DNA from: Eubacteriales bacterium
GTDB lineage: Bacteria > Bacillota > Clostridia > Oscillospirales > CAG-272
DNA: 36,083 nucleotides
Direction of reading: 5' to 3'
Assembly: GCA_045531105.1 (NCBI GenBank)
Contig: JAZSDJ010000047.1
Coordinates: 1-36,083, forward strand
A program made the position numbers and the translations under genes. Of the stretch, positions 11,753-26,572 are shown piece by piece (the stretch's first letter is position 1; every line of letters begins with the position of its first letter). The notes under the pieces are model-generated. The model was given only the letters and a program-made list of their open reading frames with translations, did not search any database and was not told the DNA's origin.

Positions 11753-13132
11753 CTATTGATTTAGTGAGCGAATAAGTTCTTTTATATCAAGAGCGAAATC
11801 GTTATCTTCTGCCATTCGGTCTTTAACAAACTTTTCGCTTGAAACAAGAGTTGAACGGTCTCTGTTTAAAATCTTCGCAATTTGTGATTGTGAAAGCGAT
11901 GTTATCTCTCTTGCAATATAAACACAAATATGACGCGCTAAAACAATTTCTTTGTTTCTCTTGCTTGATAAAATATCTTCTTTGCTGATTCCATACTTTG
12001 TTGATACGGAAATGAGTATTTCTTCAAATTTCTTTGAGTCGTTTTCTTTCGCCTGTGCAAATTCCTTTGTAACATCTTTTACTTTTTCAAGTGTTATCTC
12101 TGAGCCTTGCAAAAATTTCATCGCACCAAGTTTTTTTACAATTCCTTCAAGTTGACGAATTGATGAGGTAACATTCTCTGCAATGTATTTCAAAATTTCG
12201 CTCGATAAGTAAATATTATGTTGTTTTGCTTTTTGAGAAAGAATTGCAAGTCTTAAATCGTAGTCTGGTAATGAAACATCTGCCAAAATTCCTGACATAA
12301 ATCTTGTTCTAAGTCTTTCTTCAAGTGTTCTAATTTCGTATGGTGGACGGTCAGAGGTTAAAATGATTTGCTTTCTTTCTTCATAAACTGCATTAAATGT
12401 GTTGAAAACTTCAAGTTGTGTCGCTTCTCTTCCCGCAACAAATTGAATATCGTCTATCAAAAGAACATCAACTGCACGAAGTTTTTCTCTAAATTCCGCT
12501 GTCGTTTTATATCTTATTGCCTCAACAAGTTGATTTGTAAATTCTTCGCCTTTTATGTACATTATTTTCTTGTTTGGAAAACGATGCGCGAGTCTGTTCG
12601 TTATCGCATAAAGTAAGTGCGTTTTTCCAACTCCACTTGGACCATAAATGAATAACGGATTATAAAGGTTCGCTCTGAGCGTTTCAGGGTCGTTTAAATC
12701 TTTGTCCGCTACTGCACGCGCTGCCGCATATGCAAACTCGTTTGATGAACCAGATATGAAGTTGTCAAATGTGTAATCAGAACGATAATTGTCAAGAATT
12801 ACTATGTCGTCTGATTTTTTAGCCTCGCCACGCTCGATTTTTGAAATTTTTTCAACTGTCGGTGCTGAAAGGTCCATTTCTTCGTTTTCCGTTGAAATTA
12901 TCACTATTCTTGGCTTGAAACCAACTACCTTCTCAGTCGCTTCTGCCATCTCGTCAGCAAATATGTCAAGTATTACATTTCTTTTGGCGTTGTTCGTCGT
13001 TGTGAACATCGCTTCTTTCGATGTGAGGGAAATTAATTCCATATCTCCAAACCATAAATTATATGCAGTGTCTGGATGTTTCGTTTTTAAAATCTCTGAT
13101 ATGGGTTCCCATATACTTCTTAATTCCGCCAT
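11753..13132 (-). CDS. dnaA: Chromosomal replication initiator DnaA
   Basis: 459-aa ORF with the Walker A GPSGVGKTHL, the Walker B LLIDDIQF, the sensor region, and the C-terminal domain IV (RHICVYIAREIT..S...IAK.L.RDRSTLV). Confidence 0.97.
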   Translation of the reverse strand: MAELRSIWEPISEILKTKHPDTAYNLWFGDMELISLTSKEAMFTTTNNAKRNVILDIFADEMAEATEKVVGFKPRIVIISTENEEMDLSAPTVEKISKIERGEAKKSDDIVILDNYRSDYTFDNFISGSSNEFAYAAARAVADKDLNDPETLRANLYNPLFIYGPSGVGKTHLLYAITNRLAHRFPNKKIMYIKGEEFTNQLVEAIRYKTTAEFREKLRAVDVLLIDDIQFVAGREATQLEVFNTFNAVYEERKQIILTSDRPPYEIRTLEERLRTRFMSGILADVSLPDYDLRLAILSQKAKQHNIYLSSEILKYIAENVTSSIRQLEGIVKKLGAMKFLQGSEITLEKVKDVTKEFAQAKENDSKKFEEILISVSTKYGISKEDILSSKRNKEIVLARHICVYIAREITSLSQSQIAKILNRDRSTLVSSEKFVKDRMAEDNDFALDIKELIRSLNQ

Positions 13133-13268
13133 TTTTTACTCCTGTCTCTTACTTTTTCTTTGCTGAAAAGAAAAAGTAAGCAAAAAGAAAAGTTATAAAT
13201 TAATTTTCTATTATTTTAAAATTACTGCTAAACTAACACCAGTTTGCCACCCGAGGCGCTCGGGCGCG
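13133..13268 (-). repeat. Leader/spacer repeat module upstream of dnaA
   Basis: Near-identical to 10921-11050. The perfect 14-bp hairpin at 13148-13180 lies next to the SD (aggag). Confidence 0.8.
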
Positions 13269-13387
13269 CGCATAGTTATTCAATATTATTATATAATAAA
13301 TATTAATATATGTCAATAAATAATAATAAAAAATTCACAAAAAAAGTGGAAAACTCAAAAGAAAAATATTAAATAAAAAAGAAGAAT

Positions 13388-13620
13388 GACGGACTCGGTG
13401 CGGACTCGGTGCGGACCGAGAGCCAATCTCCGCATTTGTCTCATATAGTTGCTTAATTAACCTCGAAGCAATATAATTAAACGGACAATCTCGGTGCGGA
13501 CTCGGTGCGGACCGAGAGCTAAACTCCGCATTTGTTTCTCGTTAATTGTTCAACCAATCACGAAAAACTCGGTGTGAAACCAGAGGCAAGTTGTGCGTTT
13601 ATTTTGTATTGATTTTTTAA
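13388..13620 (-). repeat. Repeat family 3 (ggctctcggtccgcaccgag... / ttaattatattgcttcgaggttaattaagcaa units), inverted orientation
   Basis: The reverse complement of 13388-13620 is collinear with 32243-32530 and 33443-33530. Confidence 0.75.
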
Positions 13621-13725
13621 TTTGTTTACCATTTTTCACTTGTTTTCTTTTTTGGTATCTTTTTTCTTCTACCAAAGAAAAAAGTACATATAAAAAAAGA
13701 CACTCTTGCGAGCATCTTTTTTAGT

Positions 13726-15267
13726 TTAATTAAATTTTTTAGTAGCGAGTTCTTCTACTGCTAAGCCTTTTTTATAATTTTGCATAAAGTATGCGAATTT
13801 TTGCTTTGTTTGTTCATCTGCGAGGGTAGTTTCTTTTTCGCATTTAGCGAACAATGTGTCGAGGAAATCTTCCAAAGTACCTGATTTTACAACATTATAA
13901 AGAGCGAGCAAAGAAACGCCCCAAGCACCACCTTCGCCTGCGTTTTTCATAACTGTGATAGGAGCACCAAGAGCGGCACTCATAGCGTTTGCGCCAATGA
14001 AAGGAGTTTTAAAGAAGCCACCATGTCCGCATATATCGTCAATTTTAACATTTTCTTCTGCGAGGACTTCCATACCTATACTCATAGCGCCAAGTGCTGA
14101 ATAAAGGAGCATTTGAGTGAAATTAGCAAGAGTTAATTTACTATTAGGGGTACGCATTACGAGAGGAATACCGCTTTCCATACCGACAATAGGCTCGCCC
14201 GAGAGGAAGTTATAAGCAACGAGGTCACCGACCTTATCATCGCTTTGAGCCGAAATTTCGTACATTTTATCAAACAAAACATTCTTTTTGATATTTGCCC
14301 CTGCAAGAGCGATTACCTCGTCAAAAAGACCTGCCCACGCGTTTATTTCATTTGTGAAATTATTTGCATGAACCATAGCCACGCATTTTCCTGTTGGAGT
14401 TGCTACAATATCAATAGAGGGGTTAACTTTTGAGAGTGGTTTTTCAAGAACAACCATTGTAAATGCGCTTGTTCCTGCTGAAACATTACCTGTGCGCGCT
14501 TTTACTGCGTTTGTGGCTACCATACCTGTGCCTGCATCGCCCTCTGGTGGACAAACTTTTGCACCGCTTTTAAGAGTGAGAGTTGGGTCTAAAAGACGCG
14601 CCCCCTTCTCTGTTAATTCGCCTGCGTCCTCTCCTGCTACAAGAGATTTTGGCAAGAGTTTATAAAGGTCTTTATCAACTCCGTGCGCTTTCAAGAGGGA
14701 GTTATATTTTTCGAGCATTTCTTTGTCATAGTCAAAAGTTGTATCACAGATTGGGAACATTCCCGCAGCATCGCCAATTCCAAGCACTTTTTTGCCTGTT
14801 AATTGCCAATGAACATAACCTGCAAGGGTGGTGAGAAATTCAACATTTTTTACATGCTCCTCGCCGTTTAATACCGCTTGGTAAAAGTGAGTTCCACTCC
14901 AACGCTGTGGCATATTGAAATTAAGTACTTTTGTGAGTTCTTCTGACGCTTTCGCTGTCGTTGTATTTCTCCAAGTTCTGAAAGGTACTAATAGATTGTC
15001 GTCTTTGTCAAAGGCTAAATAACCATGCATCATCGCTGAAATTCCTATTCCGTCAAGATGCTCAATTTTCTCGCCAAAATTCGCACAGAGTTCGCTGTAT
15101 GAGTGTTGAAGTCCTGCCCATACCTCGTCAAGAGAGTATGTCCAAAATCCACCCTCTAACTTGTTTTCCCACTCGTGTGAGCCTTGCGCGATAATATTCG
15201 CATTTTCGTCAACAAGAACTGATTTAATTCTCGTTGAACCAAGTTCAATTCCTAATACCTTTTTCAT
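13726..15267 (-). CDS. FGGY-family carbohydrate kinase (xylulokinase-like)
   Basis: MKKVLGIELGSTRIKSVL is an actin-like ATPase phosphate-1 motif, and the 513-aa length is typical of FGGY kinases. GGGAGG precedes the ATG at 15267. The 40 upstream codons in the ORF track run through the repeat hairpin, so I discard them. Confidence 0.85.
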   Translation of the reverse strand: MKKVLGIELGSTRIKSVLVDENANIIAQGSHEWENKLEGGFWTYSLDEVWAGLQHSYSELCANFGEKIEHLDGIGISAMMHGYLAFDKDDNLLVPFRTWRNTTTAKASEELTKVLNFNMPQRWSGTHFYQAVLNGEEHVKNVEFLTTLAGYVHWQLTGKKVLGIGDAAGMFPICDTTFDYDKEMLEKYNSLLKAHGVDKDLYKLLPKSLVAGEDAGELTEKGARLLDPTLTLKSGAKVCPPEGDAGTGMVATNAVKARTGNVSAGTSAFTMVVLEKPLSKVNPSIDIVATPTGKCVAMVHANNFTNEINAWAGLFDEVIALAGANIKKNVLFDKMYEISAQSDDKVGDLVAYNFLSGEPIVGMESGIPLVMRTPNSKLTLANFTQMLLYSALGAMSIGMEVLAEENVKIDDICGHGGFFKTPFIGANAMSAALGAPITVMKNAGEGGAWGVSLLALYNVVKSGTLEDFLDTLFAKCEKETTLADEQTKQKFAYFMQNYKKGLAVEELATKKFN

Positions 15268-15277
15268 AAATACCTCC

Positions 15278-15345
15278 CTTACTTTTCTGTACTTTTTCTT
15301 TGCTGAAAAGAAAAAGTAAGCAAAAAGAAAAGTAATAAAATAACT
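15278..15345 (-). repeat. Partial leader module with the same hairpin, upstream of the FGGY kinase gene
   Basis: The string tactttttctttgctgaaaagaaaaagtaagcaaaaagaaaagt matches the dnaA and dnaN leaders. Confidence 0.7.
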
Positions 15346-15447
15346 ATATACTAAAATTTTGGTTAAAAGCCACTTATATTTTATCATATAAATAAAGGTA
15401 TTTCAAGAATAATAATATAAAGAAAAAATAAAAATTTAAAAAATATC

Positions 15448-15476
15448 TTGACAGAGTTAATTTTTTGTGATATATT
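15448..15476 (+). promoter_or_regulatory. Sigma-A-type promoter for the tRNA-Ser transcription unit
   Basis: TTGACA (15448-15453), a 17-nt spacer, then an extended -10 tgTGaTATATT (TATATT at 15471-15476). Confidence 0.7.
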
Positions 15477-15504
15477 AAGTAAGCAATTAAAACTTAATAG
15501 CATC

Positions 15505-15826
15505 TTTTGCATTAGCAGGGGTAGAGCAACGAGTTGCTTATCTCAATGAGCCTTATGTGAGTAAACTCCCATCGGCTTTCATTGGATATACGCAGCGGTT
15601 TTAAATCAAAGATTTAAATACAGTTCTCTTAGACTGCATATGATAATGCAATTGAATGCATCTTTCCAAATAATATGGGGTAGATTGACTGTCATCAATT
15701 GCTCTTACACATCACTGGTGAGTAAACTCCCCGATGATTTAGCAAGGCATACGCAGCGGTTTTAAATCGGAGATTTAAATACAGTTCTCTTTGCCTGCTT
15801 ATTTATTTGGAAAACCAAATAAATAA
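15505..15826 (+). ncRNA. Two tandem units of about 160 nt in an unclassified structured leader upstream of tRNA-Ser
   Basis: Unit 1 is about 15505-15665 and unit 2 about 15666-15826. Blocks conserved at a 159-161-nt offset are ggggtaga, gtgagtaaactccc and atacgcagcggttttaaatcNNagatttaaatacagttctctt. They lie between a strong promoter and the tRNA. Confidence 0.4.
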
Positions 15827-15914
15827 GCAGGGGTATCGAAGCGGTCATAACGAGGCGGTCTTGAAAACCGTTTGGCCAAAAGCCACGTGGGTTCGAATCC
15901 CACCCCCTGCGCCA
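15827..15914 (+). tRNA. tRNA-Ser (anticodon UGA), CCA encoded
   Basis: The acceptor GCAGGGG pairs with CCCCTGC. The anticodon arm is GCGGT-CTTGAAA-ACCGT. There is a long variable arm, the T arm is GTGGG-TTCGAAT-CCCAC, and the discriminator is G followed by CCA. Confidence 0.92.
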
Positions 15915-15919
15915 AAAAT

Positions 15920-15953
15920 AAAAGCAGTACATTTCGTACTGCTTTTATTTTTT
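15920..15953 (+). terminator. Rho-independent terminator after tRNA-Ser
   Basis: Hairpin aaaagcagtac-atttc-gtactgctttt followed by a T-run. Confidence 0.8.
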
Positions 15954-16195
15954 ACTCTTTGCAGTGGTTGGAATTCTCACAAGTGGCGTAGCCACGCGGG
16001 ACGAGGAGACCGAACGCATTCGGGGAATGATAAAGTGAGGTTGACGAGGTGGAGCAACACAAAGAACACGAGCAAACTTGCTTGTGCGAAGTGTGATTTG
16101 ATTGCTTGTGACAGGGCGCCGTCGTGCGCGAATCCCACCAATTTTCATTTTTTAGATAAATAAAACAGTTGGCATTTGATTAAAATTCAAGAACT

Positions 16196-16210
16196 AATCC
16201 CACCCCCTGC
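16196..16210 (+). repeat. Direct repeat of the tRNA-Ser 3' end (att-like scar)
   Basis: aatcccaccccctgc at 16196-16210 is identical to 15896-15910, exactly 300 bp upstream. A shorter copy, gaatcccacc, lies at about 16130-16139. Confidence 0.6.
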
Positions 16211-16369
16211 ACAAAAAATCGCACAAAAAATAGGAATGTAAGTATAAATACATACCAAAATTTGAAAAATGGCAGTTTATTTATATGTTTTCTTTTTTGG
16301 TATCTTTTTCTTCTACCAAAGAAAAAAGTACAAAGGACACTCTTACGAGTGCCCTTTTTGGTTTAGAAA

Positions 16370-18199
16370 TTATTCGCCTTGGTTAAGGAACTTTTCGCCA
16401 TTTTTAACAATGAGCATTGAGTAAGTAACAGTAATTGTACCATCTTCCGCTTTGTTGGTGATTTCGAGCAAGAGTTGTTCAATATTACCATAAACATCGC
16501 CTTCGATAATATTTGTTACTTTTTCTGCTTTAAGAAGTTCAGTGCCGAGGTCATCATAGATAGCGATTGTCATAGACATATCACCTGATATCATCTTAGC
16601 AGCATCTATTGTTGACATGATGTAGTAGCCAGTGCCAGCGTCTGTAACCGCTGTAAATGTACCTTCTGTTGGTTGTTGTTCTGGAATTTCAGTACCGAGT
16701 TGAACTTCGTTATTTGCACCTTTCCAAAGGAAGAATTTAGTGCTTGTAACATTACCATCTGCATCTTTAACTTCTTCTTCCAAAATCAAGGAGTTGTTGA
16801 GAATAGCGTAAATTTCTCTGTTTTCAGGAACTGTGTAGATAAGATTATTTGTTGCGTCGTAAATTTCTTTTTCGTCAACAATCAACCAAAGGTTGTTTTG
16901 TTCAATATCGCCTTTGTGAATGAGAGAAATGATAACACCATTGTCATCAATGAAGTAAGAACCAAAATCGGTTGCCAAAACCTTCATACCATTTTGAGTT
17001 GTATAAATATTAACATCGTCGCCTTGTTTAAATGGGTCGAGATATTTAATAACATTGAGGTTTGCGTCAGTAGCAACGAGATTTGCTTTAAGAACGAGGT
17101 GGTGGCTTTCAATTACATAGTAAAAGAAAACATTTTTAAGGTCTGGGTTGAGACCGTAGCCGACGTATTTAGCGTATTCTTCATCAGATGGGTGAATAGC
17201 AGCGTTTTCGCAAGGAATAAATCCGTTATAAGGGAAATCGGTTTCTTCGCCTGTCAAAATGTTTGCTTTTGTCATTTTAACATTTGTTTTGTAGCCTTCG
17301 AAAAGAACATCATATTCTTGTGCATCATCTGGAAGAGAGATAAATTCAACATACAAAACTTCGTTATCGTTTATGAAGATGCAGTATTCTTCAACAGAAT
17401 TTAAATTTTCTTTAAACTCATAGTGTGAAACGACTTGGAGATTTTTGTCAACAATGATAAATTCGTCAACGAAACTATCATAGTAATCATAATAGATGAA
17501 AGAGTCGAGTTCTTCCACATAGAAGAGGTCTTCAAAATCAAAGTTAACTTTGTTAAAGTCAGCGAGTTCAGTAAGAGTTCCTTCATCATGATTTACAAGG
17601 TAAACCTTTTTCATAAATGACAAAAGATCTGAACTATTGTTTGTGTTAAATTCATAGTCGGCTTCCATTTTGTCTTCTACTTCTTCAGCGTCCACGCCTT
17701 TGTATTCAGCAACTGCAACGCCGAATTTGTTGTAGAGATAAACATCACCTTTTTCTGCGTCACCATAAATAGCGGCAACTACAAGGAAGTCCTCGTTTCC
17801 GTCGAGTTCAAAGTAAGAAACATCGGTGATAGTTGTTTTGTAAGCCTCATTTTCTTCTTCCATAAAAGGATTTGATGTAAGTGAGATTACAGTTGAGTTA
17901 TAAACATTAAAGAGTTTGTAAGTAATGCCTGTTGGGTTACCTTCTGCATCAGAAGTTCGAATCATTTGACCAAAGAAGTGGTCGTTAATTGTTTTTACTT
18001 GTTGGTCTTTGTCTGTGAGATCAACTTTTGTGATTGTGGTTTTGTCAACCTTATTATCAAGGAAGACAATGTTAGATAAAATGCTCTCTGTTGGAATAAC
18101 AACAGGTGGTGGTGGGGTTTCTTCGTCTTCACAGCCTATAAAAGCGAGAGAAAGAAGCATAACCAAGCAAAGAGCGAGAGCTAAAATTTTCTTTTTCAT
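16370..18199 (-). CDS. Large lipoprotein of unknown function (paralog 1)
   Basis: 609-aa ORF. The signal peptide ends ...LAFIGC and is followed by the Pro-rich linker ETPPPPVVIPTE. It is homologous to the neighbouring ORF. Confidence 0.8.
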   Translation of the reverse strand: MKKKILALALCLVMLLSLAFIGCEDEETPPPPVVIPTESILSNIVFLDNKVDKTTITKVDLTDKDQQVKTINDHFFGQMIRTSDAEGNPTGITYKLFNVYNSTVISLTSNPFMEEENEAYKTTITDVSYFELDGNEDFLVVAAIYGDAEKGDVYLYNKFGVAVAEYKGVDAEEVEDKMEADYEFNTNNSSDLLSFMKKVYLVNHDEGTLTELADFNKVNFDFEDLFYVEELDSFIYYDYYDSFVDEFIIVDKNLQVVSHYEFKENLNSVEEYCIFINDNEVLYVEFISLPDDAQEYDVLFEGYKTNVKMTKANILTGEETDFPYNGFIPCENAAIHPSDEEYAKYVGYGLNPDLKNVFFYYVIESHHLVLKANLVATDANLNVIKYLDPFKQGDDVNIYTTQNGMKVLATDFGSYFIDDNGVIISLIHKGDIEQNNLWLIVDEKEIYDATNNLIYTVPENREIYAILNNSLILEEEVKDADGNVTSTKFFLWKGANNEVQLGTEIPEQQPTEGTFTAVTDAGTGYYIMSTIDAAKMISGDMSMTIAIYDDLGTELLKAEKVTNIIEGDVYGNIEQLLLEITNKAEDGTITVTYSMLIVKNGEKFLNQGE

Positions 18200-18241
18200 T
18201 TTATTCTCCTTTTAAAACTTAATTAGTTTAAATTGGTTAGA

Positions 18242-19966
18242 TTAATAATTTGGATTTGCAAAGAATACATGATATTCAAGACAGCCAGTTGCCAATGAAG
18301 CGGCGCTGTCGAGGTAAAGAACAAAGCGATCACCATAAGATGAGAAATAATCGGATAGATAATTAACATTTTGAACTGTGTCAATAAGGTCGCCAGAGAG
18401 GTTGTAGAATTTATATGTGTAAGTTGAAGTGTCTTCTACAAATTCCTTTGTGTAGTAACCAAAATTGAAGAAGTTCAAGTTATTGTCGTTATAATCTACA
18501 TCATTACCAATGAGTTTTTCTGTATCTTTGCCAGTCCAAAGAACATAATTTTCCACTTGAAGTGTTTCTTCATCTTTCTCTTCTTCTGTAAAGAGAATGG
18601 AATTTGGATTAATTGAGTGGATTTTTCTGCCTGCATCGGCATAGTTGTAAATTACATTGAGACTTGTGTCGTAAATTGCCTTGTCGTCATAGAACCATTT
18701 TTCGTTGTAACGAATGTTCATTGGAAGGTCAGCAACCTTATTGCCAGACACGTCTACGATATAACGAGTGAATTGATTTTCATAGATTTTTGCGCCATTT
18801 TTAAGGGTTGAATAAAATCCGAGTTCGTCATAGTCGAAGAACTTAACTATTTCAAGGTTATCGTTCAAGCCGATAACATTCTTTTCGCGTACCCTTGCTC
18901 CGTTTTCTATTGAAAAACCATCAAAAATCAAGTTTGAAACTGTTGAATCAGTGAAACCTTTAACTTCGGAAACAGGAATGATTTCTCCAATATACTTCAA
19001 GTCAGGGATTTCTGTAAGAGAGTCGTCAGTTGGGTTATAAATGAAAGATGTAACGTTGGCTTTTTCTCCATACATGAATACTTCGTATTCAGTTGCGTCG
19101 TCTGCCAAAACATACACGTAAACAACTAAATAGTTGCCGTTGTTAAGACGGGAAATTTCAATGTCTCCGTTTTCAATCATATCAAATTTTTTTGTGAAAA
19201 TAAGGTCATACTCAGATGATAAAACAGTTATTTCACCATTTGAAATTTTTATATAAGTGCCAGTAACTTCGTTGTAGGTGAACTCTCTAAGAGCGTAAAT
19301 GTTAACATCTTTTTTGCTTGTGTCGACCAAAAGAGTTACTGTTTTGCGTAAACCATCTCTTTCAACTTTGAAAATCTTATCTCCAAAGGTGAGGTTGTAA
19401 AGAACACCATTATTTCCGTATGAATATGAAATGGAAATATATAAATCCTCTTGTTTGGATTCAGAAACTAACAAATTCATGTTTTGGTCAAAAAGGAAGT
19501 GGTCGTATGTACCATCTTCGCGTTCAAGCACGAGATGAGTGTTGTATTCTCCATAAAAATAAACATAAGATGAATTTATGTCGTAATCTACATAAATATC
19601 GTCTGCAAATACAGACTCACCAGAGATGTCTGTGTAGATGCTCCAACCATAGGACTCACCTGTCTGTGAGCAGTAAAGAACGAAATCTTGTGAATAGAAT
19701 TTAGACTCTACATCATAAATTTCATCTCCTATATAAAGGTATGTGCCGCCATACGAGCCAGATCTATTCAAAGAAGAAAGGTTGGTTGATGTTGTGTGTT
19801 GTGTGAATGGTTGTTCTTCTTGTTCGTCAAAAATAACAGGGAATTTCTCTGTCGGAATCACCACTGGCGCAGGTGGTGGCTCTTCGTCGTTGCCTTTACA
19901 GGAAACAAGAGCGAGAGATAATACCATAATTAAAACGAGCAAGAGAGAAAAAATTCTCTTTTTCAT
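18242..19966 (-). CDS. Large lipoprotein of unknown function (paralog 2)
   Basis: 574-aa ORF. The signal peptide has the lipobox LALVSC, then EEPPPAPVVIPTE. Its C-terminal region aligns with paralog 1. Confidence 0.8.
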   Translation of the reverse strand: MKKRIFSLLLVLIMVLSLALVSCKGNDEEPPPAPVVIPTEKFPVIFDEQEEQPFTQHTTSTNLSSLNRSGSYGGTYLYIGDEIYDVESKFYSQDFVLYCSQTGESYGWSIYTDISGESVFADDIYVDYDINSSYVYFYGEYNTHLVLEREDGTYDHFLFDQNMNLLVSESKQEDLYISISYSYGNNGVLYNLTFGDKIFKVERDGLRKTVTLLVDTSKKDVNIYALREFTYNEVTGTYIKISNGEITVLSSEYDLIFTKKFDMIENGDIEISRLNNGNYLVVYVYVLADDATEYEVFMYGEKANVTSFIYNPTDDSLTEIPDLKYIGEIIPVSEVKGFTDSTVSNLIFDGFSIENGARVREKNVIGLNDNLEIVKFFDYDELGFYSTLKNGAKIYENQFTRYIVDVSGNKVADLPMNIRYNEKWFYDDKAIYDTSLNVIYNYADAGRKIHSINPNSILFTEEEKDEETLQVENYVLWTGKDTEKLIGNDVDYNDNNLNFFNFGYYTKEFVEDTSTYTYKFYNLSGDLIDTVQNVNYLSDYFSSYGDRFVLYLDSAASLATGCLEYHVFFANPNY

Positions 19967-20355
19967 TTATTCTCCTCCTTTTAAATGAATACAATAGAAT
20001 TTTAAAAATATACTACAAAATTTCCTAAAACTTAGAAAATTTTGATGTATTCTGTCAGGCTTTTCTAAAAAGCAAAGTGAAGGTTACAAAACAACCTTCA
20101 CAAATCTTAATTTTGCAACATTTTTAGATTGGTGAAACGTTGTCAACCACGCCTTGCATGTGAGAAAAATTAAATTTTTAATAAGGCTTCCGTTTTGTAA
20201 AAGTGAGACAATAAAGTCTCACTTTTACTGTCGGCATGATAAATCAAATTTCATAGAATAAGGTTTATCGTTATCATTATATCAAAAAAACGGCTGAAAA
20301 GCAATAAAAAAGAGATAAAAACTTAAATATAATAAGGATTTTTTACTTTTTACAC

Positions 20356-20385
20356 AAAAAACAGGGCGCAAAACCCTGTTTTTTA
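20356..20385 (-). terminator. Bidirectional rho-independent terminator closing the VirD4-like operon
   Basis: aaaaa-acaggg-cgcaaaa-ccctgt-tttttt, located 70 nt past the stop of the last gene. Confidence 0.75.
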
Positions 20386-20452: not shown

Positions 20453-21358
20453 TTATTTTTTCTTATAAACATATTTTGGACGACTGTTTTTTGTTATAAG
20501 TCCCGCTGCGCGAGAAAAACCATCGTCGGTAAATTCCGAAAGGTAGGTTTTTATTATTTCGTACCCTGCTTCTTCCTCGTTTGTTAAGTAGTCGGAGTCA
20601 ATTTCGCGGGTTATTTGTTTGAGCAGTTTTTGTCTGTCGGCATCTGGGTTTTGAGCGATAAGAACTGAGAGCGCGTCATCAACTGCGAGAAACGCATTTG
20701 TAAGATAATCTGACACAACCATACCATTTGTGTCATTTTCGTCAAGCAACGCCATAACCTCTAAAAGTTCTTCTATTGCGATAGTGACATTTGACGAGGT
20801 GACTGAATTATAACCGAGTTTTCCGTCGTCAAGTGTGAGAACATGGAATCTTCTTTTCAAAATCCTGTTCATAAGAAGCGCTCCCTCTTTCGTGTCAAGT
20901 CCGAGAGAGTCTTTGTAGTTGTCGTTTATGTAGTTGTTGTCGTGAACTCTGAATTTGTTGTTGTAAAGTTCAATATAAATCTTCGGCACGGATTTAGTTG
21001 GCTTTGAAAGGTCGAGAATGTACGCGTTTTCACCATTTGAGGTGATTTTACCACCAAAAGAGATAGAAAGTTCCTTCAAAATATTAACTTCTTGTTGTTG
21101 AAGTTCTTCGGGTGAAAATCTACGCCCACTTAACCACCTTTCAAACGCCGAAGTCTTTGCCTCTGTGATAGTTTTAAGGGGTGTTTGATACTTATATGTC
21201 ACGCCATCTTCGGAGATTGATGCCTTCTCTTGCTTTTCGAGTTTTTTTACAAACTCTCTTGCTTCCATATAAGAAAGGTCAAAATCTTTTTGCAAAGATG
21301 CGACGGAAAAAGAACCTTTTTCTTCAAGAGATTTATAAATTTCAGGGTATTTACTCAT
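20453..21358 (-). CDS. Protein with an N-terminal FtsK-gamma-like winged-helix domain; the rest is uncharacterised
   Basis: FSVASLQKDFDLSYMEAREFVKKLEKQ resembles the FtsK gamma motif (S.S.LQR.F.IGY.RA.R..D.LE). The preferred start MSKYPE (ATG at 21358) overlaps the upstream stop as ATGAGTAA. Confidence 0.6.
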   Translation of the reverse strand: MSKYPEIYKSLEEKGSFSVASLQKDFDLSYMEAREFVKKLEKQEKASISEDGVTYKYQTPLKTITEAKTSAFERWLSGRRFSPEELQQQEVNILKELSISFGGKITSNGENAYILDLSKPTKSVPKIYIELYNNKFRVHDNNYINDNYKDSLGLDTKEGALLMNRILKRRFHVLTLDDGKLGYNSVTSSNVTIAIEELLEVMALLDENDTNGMVVSDYLTNAFLAVDDALSVLIAQNPDADRQKLLKQITREIDSDYLTNEEEAGYEIIKTYLSEFTDDGFSRAAGLITKNSRPKYVYKKK

Positions 21359-23033
21359 CGTCATCATTCCTTTCGGTGACTTGATATACATATCGTCTGT
21401 CGTAAGGATTTATTTTCGACTTGTATTCTTTATCGTTTTTCTTTTCAATATCGTGGAACTCTGGACACATATACGAGCGTTCGAGTTTCGACCAGAAAGC
21501 GTATGGCTTATTAAGTTCGATAATTACACACTCCCCAGCCTTAAAACTTGAAAGGTCGGTTCTTGTAACAACAGGAATTGTTTCGAGTTCAAAACGAGAA
21601 AGTTCTGCGTCATTACCACTCAAAACTGATTTTGGAGAAAGGCGTGTATATTCGCCACATTCAGCCTGAAAACGAGTGAGAGTGTCTGGGTTGTTGCTTC
21701 CTAAAAAGATTTTGATATTGAGGTTATCTCTTATAATTTCAGCAGTGTTTTTGCCGTAGATGTTGTCAAGTTGTGAATACGACTGCAAAATACAGTAGAA
21801 GAAAATGTTTCTTCCACGGGCCGCGGTTATCGCTGTGTCAAAGTCGGTGATAGGTGGGAAGTTACCAAATTCGTCAAGCATGAAGTAAAACGGGGTGTCA
21901 AGTTTTGACTTTTCGCTCTTGTTTGCAACTTCGATAAGATACTTATACGCATTTTGAACAAAAAGGCTGATAAGTTGGTAATGTGTCTTAATTTCGTCTT
22001 GATAGCAGATGAAAACTGCCACTTTTCCACCAAGAAGTTCGGAAAAATCGAAGGAATTACAACTTGTTATGGTTTGAATTGTTATATTTCTAAAAATAGA
22101 AAGTTTTGTTTGGAAAACGGAAGTATAGGAACTTCTTGTAACCTTTGAGCAGTCCATCGCTGTACGCGAGAGCATAAATGCGTTGCTACTTCTGTCGCGA
22201 TTTTCAAAATAACCATTGTCAACATCAGAGTCGCCCATAGGGTCAAATGTTGCAAAAATGCGGAAGAGTGTGCGAAGTGAGAATGTGTCCTCGGTGATTG
22301 TCGCCTCTTTTTTGCCTCTTGGTCTACTGTCTTCGAGCATAGCCCACAAAAACGCTTTAAGAAGGTCGAGTGCGCCACTGTCCCAACTTCGGTCCTTTGG
22401 ATTGTCAAAGGTTATCATCATTGACGCGAGTTCGTCAATCATATTTCCGACTTTGCTCATCTCTGTGTCGAAAATTATATTGACATCGTTGTCAAGGTCA
22501 GTTTGATTTTCGTAAATTCTGCCCCTGAACATATTGCGAGGACCTTTTGGAGTGTCTATTACTTCTATTTTGTCATAGATTTTGAAAACCTCGTGATATG
22601 CCCTATAAATAGGGGTGAGAGGGTTCCAAAATTCACTGTGTTCAGGGTCACGGAAGTTGAGAAGATAAACACTGTACCCCTCATCTTCAAGCGTTTTCGC
22701 TGTCTTTTTATAAATTTCACCCTTTGGGTCGGAGATAACAAAACTTTTCTTTGTCTGTTGCTTTGCAAAAGAAAGAACGGTAGGAATTACGCAAGAGGTC
22801 GTTTTACCACCACCTGTCGCTGAAATTATAAGCGCATGTGATGCGTAATCGGAATAAATTTGCATAAGTTTGCCATTAATATATTGATTCGAGAGCAAAA
22901 TACCGTCTATTGTGAGATTAGGCAAATCGTCATAAGCCACCATTTTTGGCAAAGTGGACACAGGGTCGTCATATCTTTTGAGTTCTTTGCTTTCGTAGCC
23001 TTGCAAAAGGCTTTTGTTGCTGAAAATGTTCAT
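21351..23033 (-). CDS. VirD4/TraG/TraD-family (T4SS coupling-protein-type) ATPase lacking N-terminal transmembrane helices
   Basis: Walker A ISATGGGKTTSCVIPTVL, then SDPKGE, FWNPL, the Walker B FYFMLDEFGNFPPI and RGRNIFFYCILQSYSQLDNIYG. The Walker A starts near residue 73, and the preceding 70 residues contain no hydrophobic segment. Confidence 0.85.
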   Translation of the reverse strand: MNIFSNKSLLQGYESKELKRYDDPVSTLPKMVAYDDLPNLTIDGILLSNQYINGKLMQIYSDYASHALIISATGGGKTTSCVIPTVLSFAKQQTKKSFVISDPKGEIYKKTAKTLEDEGYSVYLLNFRDPEHSEFWNPLTPIYRAYHEVFKIYDKIEVIDTPKGPRNMFRGRIYENQTDLDNDVNIIFDTEMSKVGNMIDELASMMITFDNPKDRSWDSGALDLLKAFLWAMLEDSRPRGKKEATITEDTFSLRTLFRIFATFDPMGDSDVDNGYFENRDRSSNAFMLSRTAMDCSKVTRSSYTSVFQTKLSIFRNITIQTITSCNSFDFSELLGGKVAVFICYQDEIKTHYQLISLFVQNAYKYLIEVANKSEKSKLDTPFYFMLDEFGNFPPITDFDTAITAARGRNIFFYCILQSYSQLDNIYGKNTAEIIRDNLNIKIFLGSNNPDTLTRFQAECGEYTRLSPKSVLSGNDAELSRFELETIPVVTRTDLSSFKAGECVIIELNKPYAFWSKLERSYMCPEFHDIEKKNDKEYKSKINPYDRRYVYQVTERNDDDE

Positions 23034-23050
23034 ACTACCTGCTCCTTTCC

Positions 23051-24643
23051 TTAAAATCCAAGTTTGGTGCGTTTATCTTTTACGCTTTGTACGAGTTGGT
23101 CAACCATTTGTTTTGTAATCACCTTGCCAGAGCCTTTACCCTTAAATGAATAGATAAGTTTATCAAGAGCAAGGGCAACTTCCATAAATGTCTTAAAGCC
23201 CTCTTTGAGAGAGTCTTTTGCCTCTTTCTCTATTGAGAGGTCGGAAATTCCGTACTCTATGCTCTTTCTCAAAAGAAGTTTGTCAATAAGGGCATCTTTT
23301 TCGCTTTCTTCGATTGCTGATGCATCTATACAGTCGCAAAGGTGTCTTATGTATTTAAGGCAAGCGGTGTCACAAATGCAGATTGGCAACACGCTTGAAA
23401 GATTGAGAGTAATTCCTGGCATAACGAGTCGGAAATCATCTCTGTTTGTGTCTTTTAAAAATCTTGACAAAAGTTCAACTACTCCAAAATCGGCAACTCC
23501 TCTTAATACGATAAGAACGAGATTTTTCTTGCCCTCGTCAATATCGCGAACAAGGACATGGTTTTTGTCAAGATTGAAATCATTTCTGCCAAGCGCGCGA
23601 GCGTCAATGTCGATTATATTTGCATCAGGGAATGCGTGCGCGATAGTTTCCATATAGTCAAGCGCTACAAAATCGTCGTTTGTCACAATACAGGGCGAGA
23701 GGGCATTTGTTTCGCTCGCATAAAGAATACTTTGAATAACGCTGTTTTTCTCGGTGTCTCTTTCAAGAAGTCCACCAAGAGTGTCGCATTTTGCAACAAG
23801 GGGTACGCGTTTGAGCGCGAGAGGCAAGTCGTTTACTTCACCTACAATGTTTTTATTGTTCAAGACAAGGCGAATTTTGTCACCCTCGTCAAGAATTTCG
23901 CTGTATGCAATTCTTGAAACTTGTGGCGAGTAAATTTGAGGTTTTACAATGTTCAATCCGATTGCTTGCTCGATAAGTTCTGCCTCGTTTGAAGGAGCGA
24001 CATTTGTAAATCCGTAAAAGAGTTTCGCACTTTCAAAAATCGCCTCGAATGGAGTTCCGTTTGACACCGAATAAAGGCGAGAAATGTTCTGCGCCCTTGT
24101 GTCCTCGTCGTATGCGAGCATTGCAAGAATTGCATCAGGGTCATTCCATTTTGCACAGCGATTTATAAGGCGAAGACCGCTTTCTTTGTCCTCTCCTGTG
24201 AAAAGTCCAAGCACTTGCATAATGCCAAGGCATCGCATCGCTTCGATAATTCCACATTGAGATGCGTTTGTAAGGAATGAATAGGTCGCAGGCTTTGTCG
24301 CGTCGAGAATTGCATTGTAGCCCGCCTCTTTGAGCGCTGTTATCGCTCTGCCCTTTATGTTTGCGACGATTGTTTCAAGGTTTCCTTTGTCACCGTTTGA
24401 AAGGCGCAAAAACTCTTGTATTCTTTTGTGAAGATTGTAATCGCTTTCGCATTTTATCGCGCTGACTGTGTCGAGTTTTGTGAGTGCGAAAAGGTCGTCT
24501 CTTTCCTGCTCATCGACAAAGAAAATGTCGCACATAGATGCGAAAAGTCGTGAGATTTCTTCGTTTCCAACAAAATCCCCGATAAGTAATTCAATTTTGA
24601 AAAACGACGCAAGGCATCTTTCTTGTAAAGTTGTAAGTTTCAT
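23051..24643 (-). CDS. Uncharacterised 530-aa protein: a Sel1-like repeat plus a C-terminal degenerate Lon-like AAA+ module
   Basis: AMRCLGIMQVLGLFTGEDKESGLRLINRCAKWNDPDAILAMLAY fits the Sel1 repeat pattern. LLSRFLKDTNRDDFRLVMPGITLNLSSVLPICICDT...SEKDALIDKLLLRK parallels the Lon AAA+ region (LLEVLD..F.D....DLS.V.F..T.N...EK..I....L), but no GxxGxGKT or hhhhDE motif is present. Confidence 0.5.
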   Translation of the reverse strand: MKLTTLQERCLASFFKIELLIGDFVGNEEISRLFASMCDIFFVDEQERDDLFALTKLDTVSAIKCESDYNLHKRIQEFLRLSNGDKGNLETIVANIKGRAITALKEAGYNAILDATKPATYSFLTNASQCGIIEAMRCLGIMQVLGLFTGEDKESGLRLINRCAKWNDPDAILAMLAYDEDTRAQNISRLYSVSNGTPFEAIFESAKLFYGFTNVAPSNEAELIEQAIGLNIVKPQIYSPQVSRIAYSEILDEGDKIRLVLNNKNIVGEVNDLPLALKRVPLVAKCDTLGGLLERDTEKNSVIQSILYASETNALSPCIVTNDDFVALDYMETIAHAFPDANIIDIDARALGRNDFNLDKNHVLVRDIDEGKKNLVLIVLRGVADFGVVELLSRFLKDTNRDDFRLVMPGITLNLSSVLPICICDTACLKYIRHLCDCIDASAIEESEKDALIDKLLLRKSIEYGISDLSIEKEAKDSLKEGFKTFMEVALALDKLIYSFKGKGSGKVITKQMVDQLVQSVKDKRTKLGF

Positions 24644-24671
24644 GTTTCTCTCCCACGGAACTTACAACTAT

Positions 24672-24983
24672 TTATCGTTCGGTTGCAAGCGCCGGTATAA
24701 ATTTTTTGATTTTATCTATAATAGTTTGCTTTTCTAATTTATCTATCTTGGTCGTCAAAGAACAGTAGCCCTCGGCTTTTTCGACCTTGAATAAGTAAGC
24801 CACCGACGAAAAAGAATTGCCAAAAGGCTTTAAAAGACAATAAATGTCCTCGTCTTTCTTTATCGTCGCAAGTTGCTTGTAATGGCGCAACTCTCCGTTT
24901 TTGTCTTCGAGTGGCAATAGTCGCTTGTTTTCTTTGTCTAAAAGAATTGAAATTAAATCCGTTTTTGAAATGTCATAGTCCAC
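24672..24983 (-). CDS. Small DUF1292-like protein
   Basis: 103-aa ORF with a GTG start and GAGGTG upstream. The pattern LEDKNGELRHYKQLATIKKDEDIYCLLKP...YLFKVEK resembles DUF1292/UPF0473. Confidence 0.5.
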   Translation of the reverse strand: MDYDISKTDLISILLDKENKRLLPLEDKNGELRHYKQLATIKKDEDIYCLLKPFGNSFSSVAYLFKVEKAEGYCSLTTKIDKLEKQTIIDKIKKFIPALATER

Positions 24984-25087
24984 CTTTGATAACTCACCTC
25001 TTTGAAATTATTTTGCGATTTTAGTCTATCACAAAATAATCCGCCAAGTGTCCTGCTTTTTGGGACAGTGACAAACGAGCGCGAAAA

Positions 25088-25801
25088 TTAATCATACACT
25101 TCCGGTATCTCTATTCCCTCTTTGCGAAGTTTTTCGCGAATGGCGTCCATTTCTCTTTTGGAAACGAGAACAAAGTCCTTTTCTTTGTCGGGCTTTCTTC
25201 GCATTGCAAAAAACGCAAACACGAGGTCTGTCTTTGAGCGAGTCAAACGATAGAATTGATGCTCTAAAAGTTCGCTCGTTTCGTCAAAGTTCAAGCGAAG
25301 TCCTACCGAAAGTTGCAAAAGTGCAATTCGGGGCGCTTGCGAGTATCGCTCGTTATATTGATTTAAAAGTTTATGAAAGGTGCGTCTGCCAAGACCGACA
25401 GGCTTCCACACATCAGAGGGCTTATCAATTCCCTTTTCTCTCATAAAGCGATAAATGAGTTCCTGTAAGGTTACGAACTTTTCGCTATAATACTTCAAAA
25501 CGAAATCGTCAACCCCACCAATTAGGTTTATAACATCTTCGTCTTTGAGGATTATCTCGATATCTTCGGCTTTTGCGTTGGCTAAAAAGTTCACCAAAAC
25601 AGGCTCCATCTCGGAGAAAAATTTCTCGTCTGGTAAAAACGCATTGAGGCTATTGTCAAGCATATTTATAAGCGCCAAAAGTCGCTCTTTCACGGGTGAG
25701 GGTTCGCATCTGTCGTGCATACTTCTCATAAGCGAAAGCGCCTCTTTCGCCTCTTTAACTCCTCTGACCCTTCTCTTCAAAGGCTTGAAATCAAATTCCA
25801 T
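25088..25801 (-). CDS. Putative XRE-like HTH transcriptional regulator with an uncharacterised N-terminal domain
   Basis: The C-terminal half, TLQELIYRFMREKGIDKPSDVWKPVGLGRRTFHKLLN....PRIALLQLSVGLRLNFDETSELLE, has the Cro/C1-like helix-turn-helix pattern common in Firmicutes. Confidence 0.55.
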   Translation of the reverse strand: MEFDFKPLKRRVRGVKEAKEALSLMRSMHDRCEPSPVKERLLALINMLDNSLNAFLPDEKFFSEMEPVLVNFLANAKAEDIEIILKDEDVINLIGGVDDFVLKYYSEKFVTLQELIYRFMREKGIDKPSDVWKPVGLGRRTFHKLLNQYNERYSQAPRIALLQLSVGLRLNFDETSELLEHQFYRLTRSKTDLVFAFFAMRRKPDKEKDFVLVSKREMDAIREKLRKEGIEIPEVYD

Positions 25802-25840
25802 AAAACTCCGTTACCTTATTAATAATTTGCTTATATTTAA

Positions 25841-25869
25841 AGTTTATCATATATTAAAATAACTGTCAA
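25841..25869 (-). promoter_or_regulatory. Sigma-A-type promoter of the five-gene operon
   Basis: On the minus strand: TTGACA (25869-25864), a 17-nt spacer, then TAAACT (25846-25841). GGAG lies before the ATG at 25801. Confidence 0.6.
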
Positions 25870-26572
25870 GTAAAAAAGGTGCATATAAGCGCCGAAAAGG
25901 GCGAAGTTTCGTGCGCCCTTGCTCGGTTGTTGTGGTTAAGAAACTCAAATGCGCGCCTTTTTTGCCCTTTCGTTTGCTTGAATTTAAAATACTTGACTAA
26001 TTTTGGAAAAGTTAAGGCTCTCTTCTCTTGTGCGACTTGACCTCTTTCCTTCTTGCGCTTGCACGATTGTTAGTAAACTAACAATTTTGACAATGGTGTG
26101 TTTTTTGCTTTTACTTTTCTTTTTGTGAATGTTTTTTCGGCAAAGGAAAAGCATTTTAATGAAAAAGTCGTTTTCAATAAAAAGCCAGTTAAATCAACAA
26201 GGAAAAGGTTTGTTTAATAAATAAGGGCTGAAATCGGCAAAAGGTGTCAAAACATACTAAAACAAGGCAAAACTTTCTAAAACAAGGCAAAACAAAATTA
26301 TTTTAGACAGCGCGCTTCGGCAAGGTTTTTAGTCGGGAAATGGTAAAATAATATTGACAAGGTCAAAAAGGCAAAAATGCTCGCTTATTTTGAAACTTTC
26401 CTTTTACTATGTAAAAGGAAAAATGGATTTTTAAGGCGAAAAACCTTGGTTTTTGCTTGCCTTGTTAAACGCGAAACAGGCTATGTTTGAACAGTTGGGC
26501 ATGTGTTTGCCGACGGGCAATTTTGAGGTTGATTGCTCATGCTCCGACGACGAATGAAGTACTGTTAATAAG

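Follow-up and report, generated by a model that had tools for sequence, protein, structure and literature searches.

Type IV coupling proteins (T4CPs) are regarded as dedicated to conjugation and type IV secretion; what, then, is an ATPase of this family doing in a compact five-gene operon that stands apart from any conjugation locus? The operon lies in the 36,083-nt stretch of DNA from a Eubacteriales bacterium that was analyzed here (the window), which covers the replication-origin region of a Clostridia-type Firmicute (dnaA-noc-soj-spo0J). Its five tightly packed open reading frames (ORFs), g1 to g5, span 20453-25801 on the minus strand, and we write G1 to G5 for their products and the corresponding protein families. 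We found the operon to be one copy of a widespread module in gut Clostridia, the core of which is a pseudo-AAA+ protein, G3, translationally coupled to the T4CP-like ATPase, G4; G3 bears a Gly-Phe (GF) tail on a flexible end, and a dedicated ClpP paralogue accompanies the pair in ~60% of loci. The module consists of known parts in a new arrangement and is possibly a new kind of ClpP machine. The operon and its signals are as follows.

25841..25869, minus strand: sigma-70-type promoter-like site 5' of g1 (TTGACA, 17 nt, TG-n-TAAACT), the top score of the scan with 10/12 matches and an extended -10 TG; a consensus match only.
25088..25801, minus strand: g1, 237 aa; putative regulator with a weak Cro/C1-type helix-turn-helix (HTH).
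24672..24983, minus strand: g2, 103 aa, GTG start; DUF1292-like small protein.
23051..24643, minus strand: g3 (G3), 530 aa; Sel1-type helical repeats in the N-terminal part and a Lon/Clp-type pseudo-AAA+ region in the C-terminal part.
21351..23033, minus strand: g4 (G4), 560 aa; soluble VirD4/TraG-family ATPase (FtsK-HerA superfamily).
20453..21358, minus strand: g5 (G5), 301 aa from the ATG at 21358; the longer ORF, 20453-21391, has 312 aa.
20356..20385, minus strand: intrinsic-terminator-like hairpin 3' of g5 (AACAGGG ttttgcg CCCTGTT followed by a T-run), read from the sequence and absent from the scanner list.

All five ORFs of this tightly packed unit were found as given in the preliminary description of this DNA, which had been made from the letters alone, and the signals it had proposed were also recovered, the promoter as the best site of the scan (by consensus match) and the terminator as a hairpin with a T-run that is visible in the sequence although the scanner did not list it. 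The overlap reported for the last two genes is real, the g4 stop overlapping the g5 start as ATGAGTAA, while the gaps before g3 and g4, given as 29 and 18 nt, are in fact 28 and 17 nt. Since the ATG at 21358 overlaps the g4 stop and has GAAAGGAA, a ribosome-binding site, 5' of it, this is most likely the start of g5 and 301 aa the length of its product. None of the five operon proteins has a transmembrane-like segment and, as had been noted, the window contains no relaxase, VirB4 or integrase gene.

Judged by its sequence, g4 unambiguously encodes a predicted VirD4/TraG-family ATPase. It matches the Pfam families PF02534 (T4SS-DNA_transf, 5e-52), PF12696 (TraG-D_C, 4e-25), and PF10412 (TrwB_AAD_bind, 8e-17), and the G4-family profile matches Helicobacter pylori Cag5/VirD4 in the PDB at 1.5e-14. 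G4 shares with the T4CPs VirD4, TraG, and TrwB the nucleotide-binding domain, the all-alpha domain, the TraG-D_C region, and intact Walker motifs, which are located as follows.

22800..22823, minus strand: Walker A of G4, SATGGGKT, with K77; G76, K77, and T78 are invariant in our G4 alignment (A3).
21870..21887, minus strand: Walker B of G4, YFMLDE (FMLDEF); L386, D387, E388, F389, G390, N391, F392, and P393 (LDEFGNFP) are invariant in the same alignment.

These features suggest that G4 works like, and descends from, the T4CPs, and yet it fails three defining features of a functional coupling protein, namely the membrane anchor, linkage to a type IV secretion system (T4SS) or relaxase, and the NCBIfam cut-off. 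The lack of an anchor, which the preliminary description had already pointed out, was confirmed by a maximal 19-residue Kyte-Doolittle mean of 0.99 in the window's G4 (family median 1.33, maximum 1.80, n = 84), as compared with two N-terminal segments above 2.0 in the T4CP of pLS20; no G4 family member checked has an N-terminal membrane anchor, and no membrane partner recurs beside G4 in the fetched loci. G4 is accordingly a smaller protein (~560 aa) than the T4CPs of pLS20 and pCd5_2, which have 729-787 aa and transmembrane helices. Its score against the NCBIfam equivalog model NF045973 (VirD4-like, CD1115 family) was 241.7 bits, spread over two stretches and below the 250-bit cut-off, and its identity to CD1115-family T4CPs is ~28%. 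A word-index search returned >1,800 G4 homologues, within which there is a tight G4 family of ~560 aa and ~50% identity, mostly from uncultured Clostridia. The NCBI label of the homologues is [quoted passage not shown] and annotation of G4 as a conjugative transfer protein would inflate mobilome estimates in these metagenome-assembled genomes (MAGs).

The distribution of the module was determined by scanning one genome per GTDB species (185,579) with a profile of the A3 alignment, which gave 168 relatives, of which 80 loci were kept. Most loci with the module come from Christensenellales-type gut MAGs. A census of the 80 fetched loci plus the window, made with hidden Markov models on stop-to-stop ORFs and with denominators that vary by feature, gave these counts.

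G3 gene directly 5' of G4 on the same strand: 74/75 loci (the exception is locus L022).
G3-G4 overlap: 64/74 loci, median -14 nt.
Winged-helix gene directly 3' of G4: 64/76 loci.
ClpP gene directly 5' of G3: 45/73 loci.
DUF1292-like gene within 6 kb of G4: 26/81 loci.

The genes are intact and their order is fixed across the 80 species genomes, 3 of which have two copies of the module. The co-occurrence on which the preliminary description had hung its proposal therefore extends well beyond this genome, as far as G3, G4, and the winged-helix protein are concerned. Among the loci whose upstream sequence is long enough, only in L022 (10001-11638) is G3 missing upstream of G4, and a winged-helix gene is still 3' of this G4; the MAG of L022 also holds another copy (L049), which is complete and has ClpP and G3.

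To look for conjugation genes, all ORFs of ~100 loci, with up to 10 kb on each side, were compared by tblastn with pCW3, pLS20, and the pLS20-like plasmid pCd5_2 of Clostridioides difficile, probes that represent Firmicute types only. There was no match to VirB4-like/TcpF proteins, MobP2 or TcpM relaxases, TcpC, TcpD, TcpE, TcpH, or p028. Within this screen only G4 matched T4CPs, FtsK-like ORFs matched TcpA/TcpB, and a single locus gave an integrase-like match. The Pfam-annotated contexts agree in having no T4SS genes around the module. G4 is thus unlinked to any relaxase, VirB4, or channel gene and is instead, L022 apart, always paired with G3. Because the G3-G4 pair recurs beyond this genome and never within a T4SS or an ICE (integrative and conjugative element), we conclude that the module, besides being conserved, is non-conjugative and does not stem from the decay of an ICE; the preliminary description had called the operon an orphan without conjugation context. 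The conserved unit is, however, not the five genes as a whole: it comprises G3-G4 and a winged-helix protein that evolves fast, frequently accompanied by a DUF1292-like gene, and g1 belongs to the close lineage only. A plasmid origin was also considered and rejected, as no G3 homologue was found among 72,556 plasmids (PLSDB), where the matches to G4 are classical T4CPs with no more than 29% identity. The module is apparently undescribed, with no entry in PADLOC, Pfam, NCBIfam, or the searchable literature; among open-access papers and bioRxiv preprints we found no description of a module of VirD4-like protein, ClpP, and pseudo-AAA+ protein.

G3 has no match in Pfam, NCBIfam, PADLOC, or PHROG, its family (528 clusters at 50% identity) is uniformly ~535 aa in length, and its homologues are annotated publicly as "hypothetical protein." In a confident AlphaFold2 (AF2) model of G3, with a predicted local distance difference test score (pLDDT) of 89.5, helical repeats make up the N-terminal domain and an AAA+ fold the C-terminal one. 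Foldseek searches with this model returned Lon, RuvB, and ClpB at E-values of 1e-6 to 1e-4 (the Lon AAA+ domain at ~1e-6), along with viral Lon and ClpA, and in the PDB, positions 114-174 of the G3-family profile matched the Sel1-repeat proteins 6ok3 (3.7e-9), 8sxq, and 5b26, while the same profile matched the AAA+ domain of Lon at 4e-4. Model, Foldseek, and sequence profile all fit the HCLR-clade AAA+ fold, with its alpha/beta part and its lid. Three regions of G3 were delimited.

24062..24295, minus strand: Sel1-like helical repeats, ~residues 117-194, from the family profile against the PDB; helical hairpins at residues 117-194 in the model.
23072..23758, minus strand: degenerate AAA+ module, ~residues 296-524, from model secondary structure, Foldseek, and alignment.
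23054..23062, minus strand: tripeptide Leu-Gly-Phe-COOH at the C-terminus, of the ClpX type that docks on ClpP; conserved, and carried by a tail predicted to be disordered.

A regular-expression search of G3 found no P-loop GK[ST] (Walker A), and there is no acidic Walker B (hhhhDE). In the family consensus the place of the P-loop after beta-1 is taken by PLCxxSDSxY, and NVxxLxxxG stands at beta-3 in place of hhhhDE. G3 is therefore a pseudo-ATPase and, having lost both Walker motifs, cannot be the motor of the module. At the end of the protein, G529 does not vary within the family and F530 shows conservation of at least 90%, on a tail (residues 525-530) modeled with pLDDT below 50. The motif across the family is [Y/I/L/F]-G-F-G-G near the C-terminus, and in the lineage of the window it is L-G-F-COOH.

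When ClpX, ClpA, and ClpC dock on ClpP, it is a tripeptide of the form I/L/M-G-F that enters its hydrophobic pockets (PMC9753991). The commonest neighbor of the module is a ClpP paralogue directly 5' of G3. These paralogues match PF00574 at 1.9e-54, and the Ser-His-Asp triad is intact in all 35 of the non-redundant sequences that were aligned to Escherichia coli ClpP. The window itself contains no ClpP gene. When the first residue of the tripeptide was tabulated against the presence of a ClpP gene in the module, the two were found to covary.

Modules with their own ClpP (n = 45): I/L-GF 0, Y/F-GF 39, other 6.
Modules without their own ClpP (n = 32): I/L-GF 21, Y/F-GF 9, other 2.

The association of I/L-GF, as opposed to everything else, with the absence of ClpP has a Fisher p of 3e-11, computed from counts that are not phylogenetically independent. 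A rough neighbor-joining (NJ) tree of G4 requires at least 15 changes in the ClpP state and at least 11 in the I/L state, and since I/L always occurs in ClpP-less modules, we conclude that the association arose repeatedly, in several lineages. The simplest reading of this pattern is that G3 would dock on ClpP, the aliphatic I/L-GF form serving for the housekeeping ClpP, as in the window, and the aromatic variant having co-evolved with the dedicated paralogue. The preliminary description had seen a DNA pump paired with a scaffold and had stated that the operon matches no known system. The latter holds, whereas the former missed both the ClpP paralogue and the docking-type motif of G3, and it is these two that shift the mechanism toward a ClpP-coupled machine.

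The third conserved member is the product of the gene 3' of G4, which in the window is G5.

21188..21358, minus strand: winged-helix domain of G5, residues 1-57; single-sequence AF2 model with helices at 4-14, 19-26, and 30-42 and strands at 46-48 and 55-57, pLDDT 73-91.

The fold is H-H-H-beta-beta. FtsK_gamma (PF09397) matches residues 15-54 of the 312-aa ORF at 18.6 bits (E = 0.0016), which is below the gathering cut-off of 30.6 bits. A word-index search with G5 returned no homologue besides itself, and homology was instead established by tblastn in the fetched loci and by hhalign, in which the G5 N-terminus matched the winged-helix family found 3' of G4 elsewhere with 97.7% probability (E 1.5e-12). 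Members of that family match FtsK_gamma at E-values down to 5e-12 and exceed the cut-off by way of a second winged helix (45.7 bits), and in 8 loci the slot is occupied by a full FtsK_SpoIIIE+gamma protein. In L014, a relative of the window, G5 is only 44% identical by tblastn, as compared with 87% for G4 and 79% for G3, which makes G5 the fast-evolving member of the module.

What might these proteins do together? The reading that we favor, with confidence that is evenly balanced, is that the module encodes a DNA-guided, T4CP-powered machine that would dock on ClpP and probably act as a conflict or defense module, the operon of the window being a ClpP-less version of it. In such a machine G3 would form an inactive AAA+-like collar that bridges a G4 ring to ClpP and docks through its GF tails, either on the dedicated ClpP paralogue, where there is one, or on the housekeeping ClpP, where the motif is I/L-GF (LGF-COOH here). 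G4 would provide the ATP-driven translocating or remodeling activity and the winged-helix protein would recognize a DNA or nucleoprotein target, so that the complex could remove a DNA-associated protein, or unfold it, and pass it on to ClpP. The role itself is more weakly inferred, and our best guess is that it would be directed against invading DNA (phage, plasmid, or conjugative). It is suggested by a distribution that is patchy, with more than one copy in some genomes, by genomic sites that vary, by a recognition subunit that evolves fast, by genes for HTH regulators 5' of the module, and by neighbors of conflict type, which include restriction-modification and PARG genes, Pkinase+VWA+PP2C triads, Macro, ASCH, Metallophos, HAD_SAK_2, and TIR-LRR proteins, and an IetA-like AAA protein.

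Several observations weigh against this reading. The case for ClpP docking is made up of a three-residue motif, gene adjacency, and covariation; the GF motif is on a C-terminal tail, as opposed to the internal loop of ClpX, ClpA, and ClpC; the covariation counts share phylogeny and the NJ tree is rough; and the window has no ClpP gene, so that use of the housekeeping ClpP is an assumption. With regard to the role, defense-type neighbors are not present in every locus and several loci are flanked by plain housekeeping genes, the block is stably near the origin in the window's lineage and thus looks vertical rather than mobile, and the FtsZ-like and FtsK-like neighbors could equally indicate a function in division or segregation. 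PADLOC produced no system whose models matched; in PADLOC-DB v2 there was no significant match for G1, G2, G3, or G5 and only mad8 (41.9 bits) for G4. A relationship of G4 to mad8 (MADS) was considered and rejected: the match is weak, generic to P-loop proteins, and shared by an unrelated AAA protein, and the MADS preprint gives no domain information connecting MADS to G4.

A bolder and more tentative form of the favored reading, one that we think possible but would not bet on, is that the module represents a new class of compartmental protease, one whose motor would be something other than an AAA+ unfoldase. A FtsK/HerA-type G4 ring derived from T4CPs would sit on an inactive Lon/Clp-like G3 collar whose GF tails reach into ClpP, with the winged helix aiming the complex at DNA-bound targets. 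Immunity would then be exerted against incoming DNA in nucleoprotein form, such as plasmid, conjugative, or phage DNA capped by a relaxase or Rep protein, by means of the ancestral capacity of coupling proteins to recognize and thread such complexes.

It is feasible, though unlikely in our judgment, that the module is instead an accessory for handling chromosomal or replicon DNA, in which a G4 motor guided by the winged helix acts in segregation, division, or sporulation and ClpP and G3 provide only turnover or regulation. The FtsK_gamma domains, and sometimes the full FtsK_SpoIIIE motor, of the downstream partners would fit such a function, as would the FtsZ/tubulin-like genes that share an operon with the module in several loci. 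So would the position of the block in the origin region, beside noc-soj-spo0J or dnaA, to which the preliminary description had attached some weight; this position applies to the window and its close relatives, however, and elsewhere in the family the sites vary, and it therefore gives weak support to a role in chromosome segregation. Relatives in only 168 of the 185,579 species genomes and two copies in some genomes also speak against an accessory of this kind, and the very fast evolution of the recognition subunit would not be expected of a reader of a fixed chromosomal motif.

Equally unlikely, in our estimate, is a defense or conflict system to which ClpP is incidental. In that case G3 would serve as sensor or scaffold, and G4, as a DNA translocase, would detect foreign DNA or expel it, in the manner of HerA in SIR2-HerA and DUF4297-HerA, with another effector or none. 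That 28/73 loci have no adjoining ClpP, that conflict-type neighbors are present, and that G4 belongs to the FtsK-HerA superfamily are all compatible with this, but it leaves unexplained the invariant GF tail, the switch between I/L and Y/F that tracks the dedicated ClpP in several lineages, and the other Clp-related neighbors (such as the Clp_N fusion).

Less probable than either is a lineage-specific system of regulated proteolysis, proteostatic or developmental, that belongs to Christensenellales-type Clostridia and has no part in conflict. Although ClpP, DnaJ-Sel1, AAA-M41, and Clp_N-FtsZ neighbors, the placement of several loci between housekeeping genes, and stable inheritance near the origin in the window's lineage are what such a system might show, its distribution would hardly be patchy with duplicate copies in some genomes, repressor-type HTH genes 5' of the module would not be expected, and a T4CP-type motor with a fast-evolving DNA-binding subunit is odd for general proteostasis.

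That the operon is a decayed remnant of an ICE or an integrative and mobilizable element, or that G4 is an orphan coupling protein serving a T4SS encoded elsewhere, is very improbable and already largely refuted. The nearest annotated relatives of G4 are indeed pLS20-type T4CPs of the CD1115 family, which lie in conjugation operons, and NCBI names its homologues accordingly. Against this stand the ~100 loci without a T4SS or relaxase gene (and with an integrase match in only one), the intact genes in fixed order in 80 species genomes, the absence from all family members of the membrane anchor through which T4CPs are attached to the channel, the missed NCBIfam equivalog cut-off, and the lack of any G3 counterpart in PLSDB plasmids. 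Least probable of all is a phage or phage-like element with a FtsK/HerA-type packaging ATPase and a ClpP-type prohead protease, a reading that we rejected as the main one on the INPHARED, IMG/VR, and PHROG results: FtsK-HerA ATPases do package DNA in some membrane-containing phages, and some of the loci consist of long runs of genes on one strand, with ClpP, methylase, and RNA-repair-type genes among them, but there is no G3 homologue in 50,697 phage records (INPHARED), G4 finds only VirD4-like proteins in IMG/VR (24-39% identity in the best segment, the strongest matches at ~29%), the recurrent uncharacterized neighbors have no PHROG match, and the annotated contexts contain no capsid, portal, or terminase gene.

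None of the known systems with which we compared the module matches it. The proteases ClpXP, ClpAP, ClpCP, HslUV, and Lon share with it the HCLR-clade AAA+ fold and (I/L)-G-F tripeptide that are found in G3, and in most loci a bona fide ClpP with an intact triad adjoins. G3 differs in its loss of Walker A and B, in the C-terminal location of a motif that otherwise lies in an internal loop, and in having a Sel1-repeat N-domain in place of Clp_N or a zinc-binding domain. Docking by a C-terminal tail is the mode of HslU and the proteasomal ATPases. Moreover, the only ATPase of active type that is predicted in the module is the RecA-fold, FtsK/HerA-type G4, a kind of protein that is not known as a partner of ClpP. 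FtsK/SpoIIIE with their gamma domain and Streptomyces TraB resemble the module in combining a hexameric motor of the FtsK-HerA superfamily with a winged helix of FtsK-gamma type, which could load the motor in a sequence-directed way; in the module, however, the winged helix is a separate and fast-evolving protein, the motor is of the VirD4 branch, and there is no membrane domain. SIR2-HerA and DUF4297-HerA offer a likeness in concept, that of a ring ATPase beside, and presumably in complex with, an effector, which in the module would be a protease engaged through an adaptor. They differ in the branch of the ATPase (the HerA models of PADLOC match G4 only at E = 0.039) and in the effector, and the module adds a pseudo-AAA+ adaptor and a winged-helix subunit. 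The interpretation of the preliminary description is partly supported overall, its view of the operon as orphan, non-conjugative, and unlike known systems being the portion that holds.

A large, conserved clade of coupling proteins without an anchor or T4SS partners, and with a pseudo-AAA+ partner and a link to ClpP, would demonstrate that this type of motor has been put to another use. Were the tail of G3 to dock on ClpP, the module would be without precedent among ClpP partner systems in having a RecA-fold ring of FtsK/HerA type as its active ATPase, and ClpP could be directed at DNA-associated substrates by a novel route. If it is a defense system, its architecture of motor, adaptor, housekeeping or dedicated protease, and variable DNA reader would be new, and it would come from Christensenellales-type gut Clostridia, the immune repertoire of which is almost unexplored.

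The genes around the module include, in the same operons, fusions of FtsZ/tubulin with Clp_N. In L011 (13879-15240) and L112 (12786-14147), and also in L030, a 453-aa Tubulin + FtsZ_C protein fused to Clp_N is encoded a few genes 3' of G4; even taken alone, an FtsZ homologue with the domain that binds adaptors and substrates in Clp ATPases is unusual. Other neighbors that recur in such operons are a 1,209-aa AAA_2 + AAA + peptidase-M41 protein that is IetA-like by PADLOC (146 bits; L063, 2468-6097), a 406-aa soluble AAA + M41 protein (L087, 17145-18365), and a 562-aa DnaJ + Sel1 protein (L066, 13825-15513). The recurrence of AAA-M41 and DnaJ-Sel1 neighbors suggests a wider gene set of proteostasis type around the module and, together with the Clp_N fusions, adds to the case for a link to ClpP. 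Sets of a vWA protein and a Ser/Thr kinase, with or without PP2C, that are of the TerY-P type adjoin the module in several unrelated loci (L017:6300-12000, L048:17160-20812, L072:8298-, and L004:4554-7796), the first of which is the closest species-level relative of the window; PADLOC assigned the kinase of such a set to generic kinase models only.

With respect to the first two genes of the operon, the domain calls of the preliminary description fared less well than they did for g3, g4, and g5. Only a weak HTH can be upheld for g1, for which an XRE-type HTH had been proposed: HTH_26 matches residues 118-152 at E = 0.012, under the Pfam cut-off, and a g1-family profile found no match in the PDB. 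Homologues of g1 are confined to the close relatives L014-L018, and in other lineages its upstream slot is filled by an XRE HTH_3 protein. The DUF1292-like assignment of g2 stands at the level of the family, in that PF06949 matches 19/24 G2 family members (best 5e-9), with the window copy giving no match at E ≤ 0.01 when searched alone. By tblastn, g2 homologues were found beside G3-G4 in four further context classes. G2 is to this extent like the YrzB-type small proteins of DUF1292 that adjoin ruvX, but it is a paralogue that has diverged from them and been recruited to the module. In L112 (16822-17580) a ruvX-DUF1292 pair of the canonical housekeeping kind is present 5 kb from the module, and the G2 of the module is therefore a separate, divergent DUF1292 paralogue.

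The surroundings of the block in the window merit brief description. The minus-strand gene order is recA, gyrA, gyrB, recF, dnaN, and dnaA; after dnaA come an FGGY kinase, two large lipoprotein-like ORFs, and the five-gene block, beyond which the plus strand carries noc (parB-like), soj, and spo0J. Cumulative GC skew has its minimum at ~15-16 kb, near dnaA (window 13000-16500). As the block is to the right of this minimum and on the minus strand, it would be head-on to replication, while noc, soj, and spo0J are co-directional. A DnaA-box scan meant to tie the block to oriC gave 8 matches versus 8.4 expected, with no excess over chance. A repeat search of the two intergenic regions flanking the block found nothing resembling oriT, att sites, or arrays. 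The 486-nt spacer beyond the g5 terminator contains two further strong hairpins, one at 20077-20101 (minus strand; 11-bp stem and T-run), which is listed by the scanner and is stronger than that of the terminator, and one at 20197-20228, an inverted repeat of 13 bp that is perfect, has a loop of 6 nt, and lacks a T-run. In the 700-nt spacer between the block promoter and noc, the segments 26261-26376 and 26450-26466 hold three copies of AACAAGGCAAAA (spacing 20 and 84 nt) and an inverted partner; these may be operator or parS-like sites, or nothing.

The two large ORFs between the block and the FGGY kinase (16370-19966) adjoin each other, encode proteins of 609 and 574 aa without a Pfam match, and are replaced by other genes in the close relatives L014 and L017; the 574-aa ORF begins with a lipoprotein-type signal (…LALVSC). 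Finally, a gene for a 116-aa "23S rRNA-intervening sequence protein" (PF05635, 3.7e-22) is located between recF and dnaN at window 9280-9630, and while it is not in L002, a PF05635 gene occupies the same recF-dnaN position in the relative L001.

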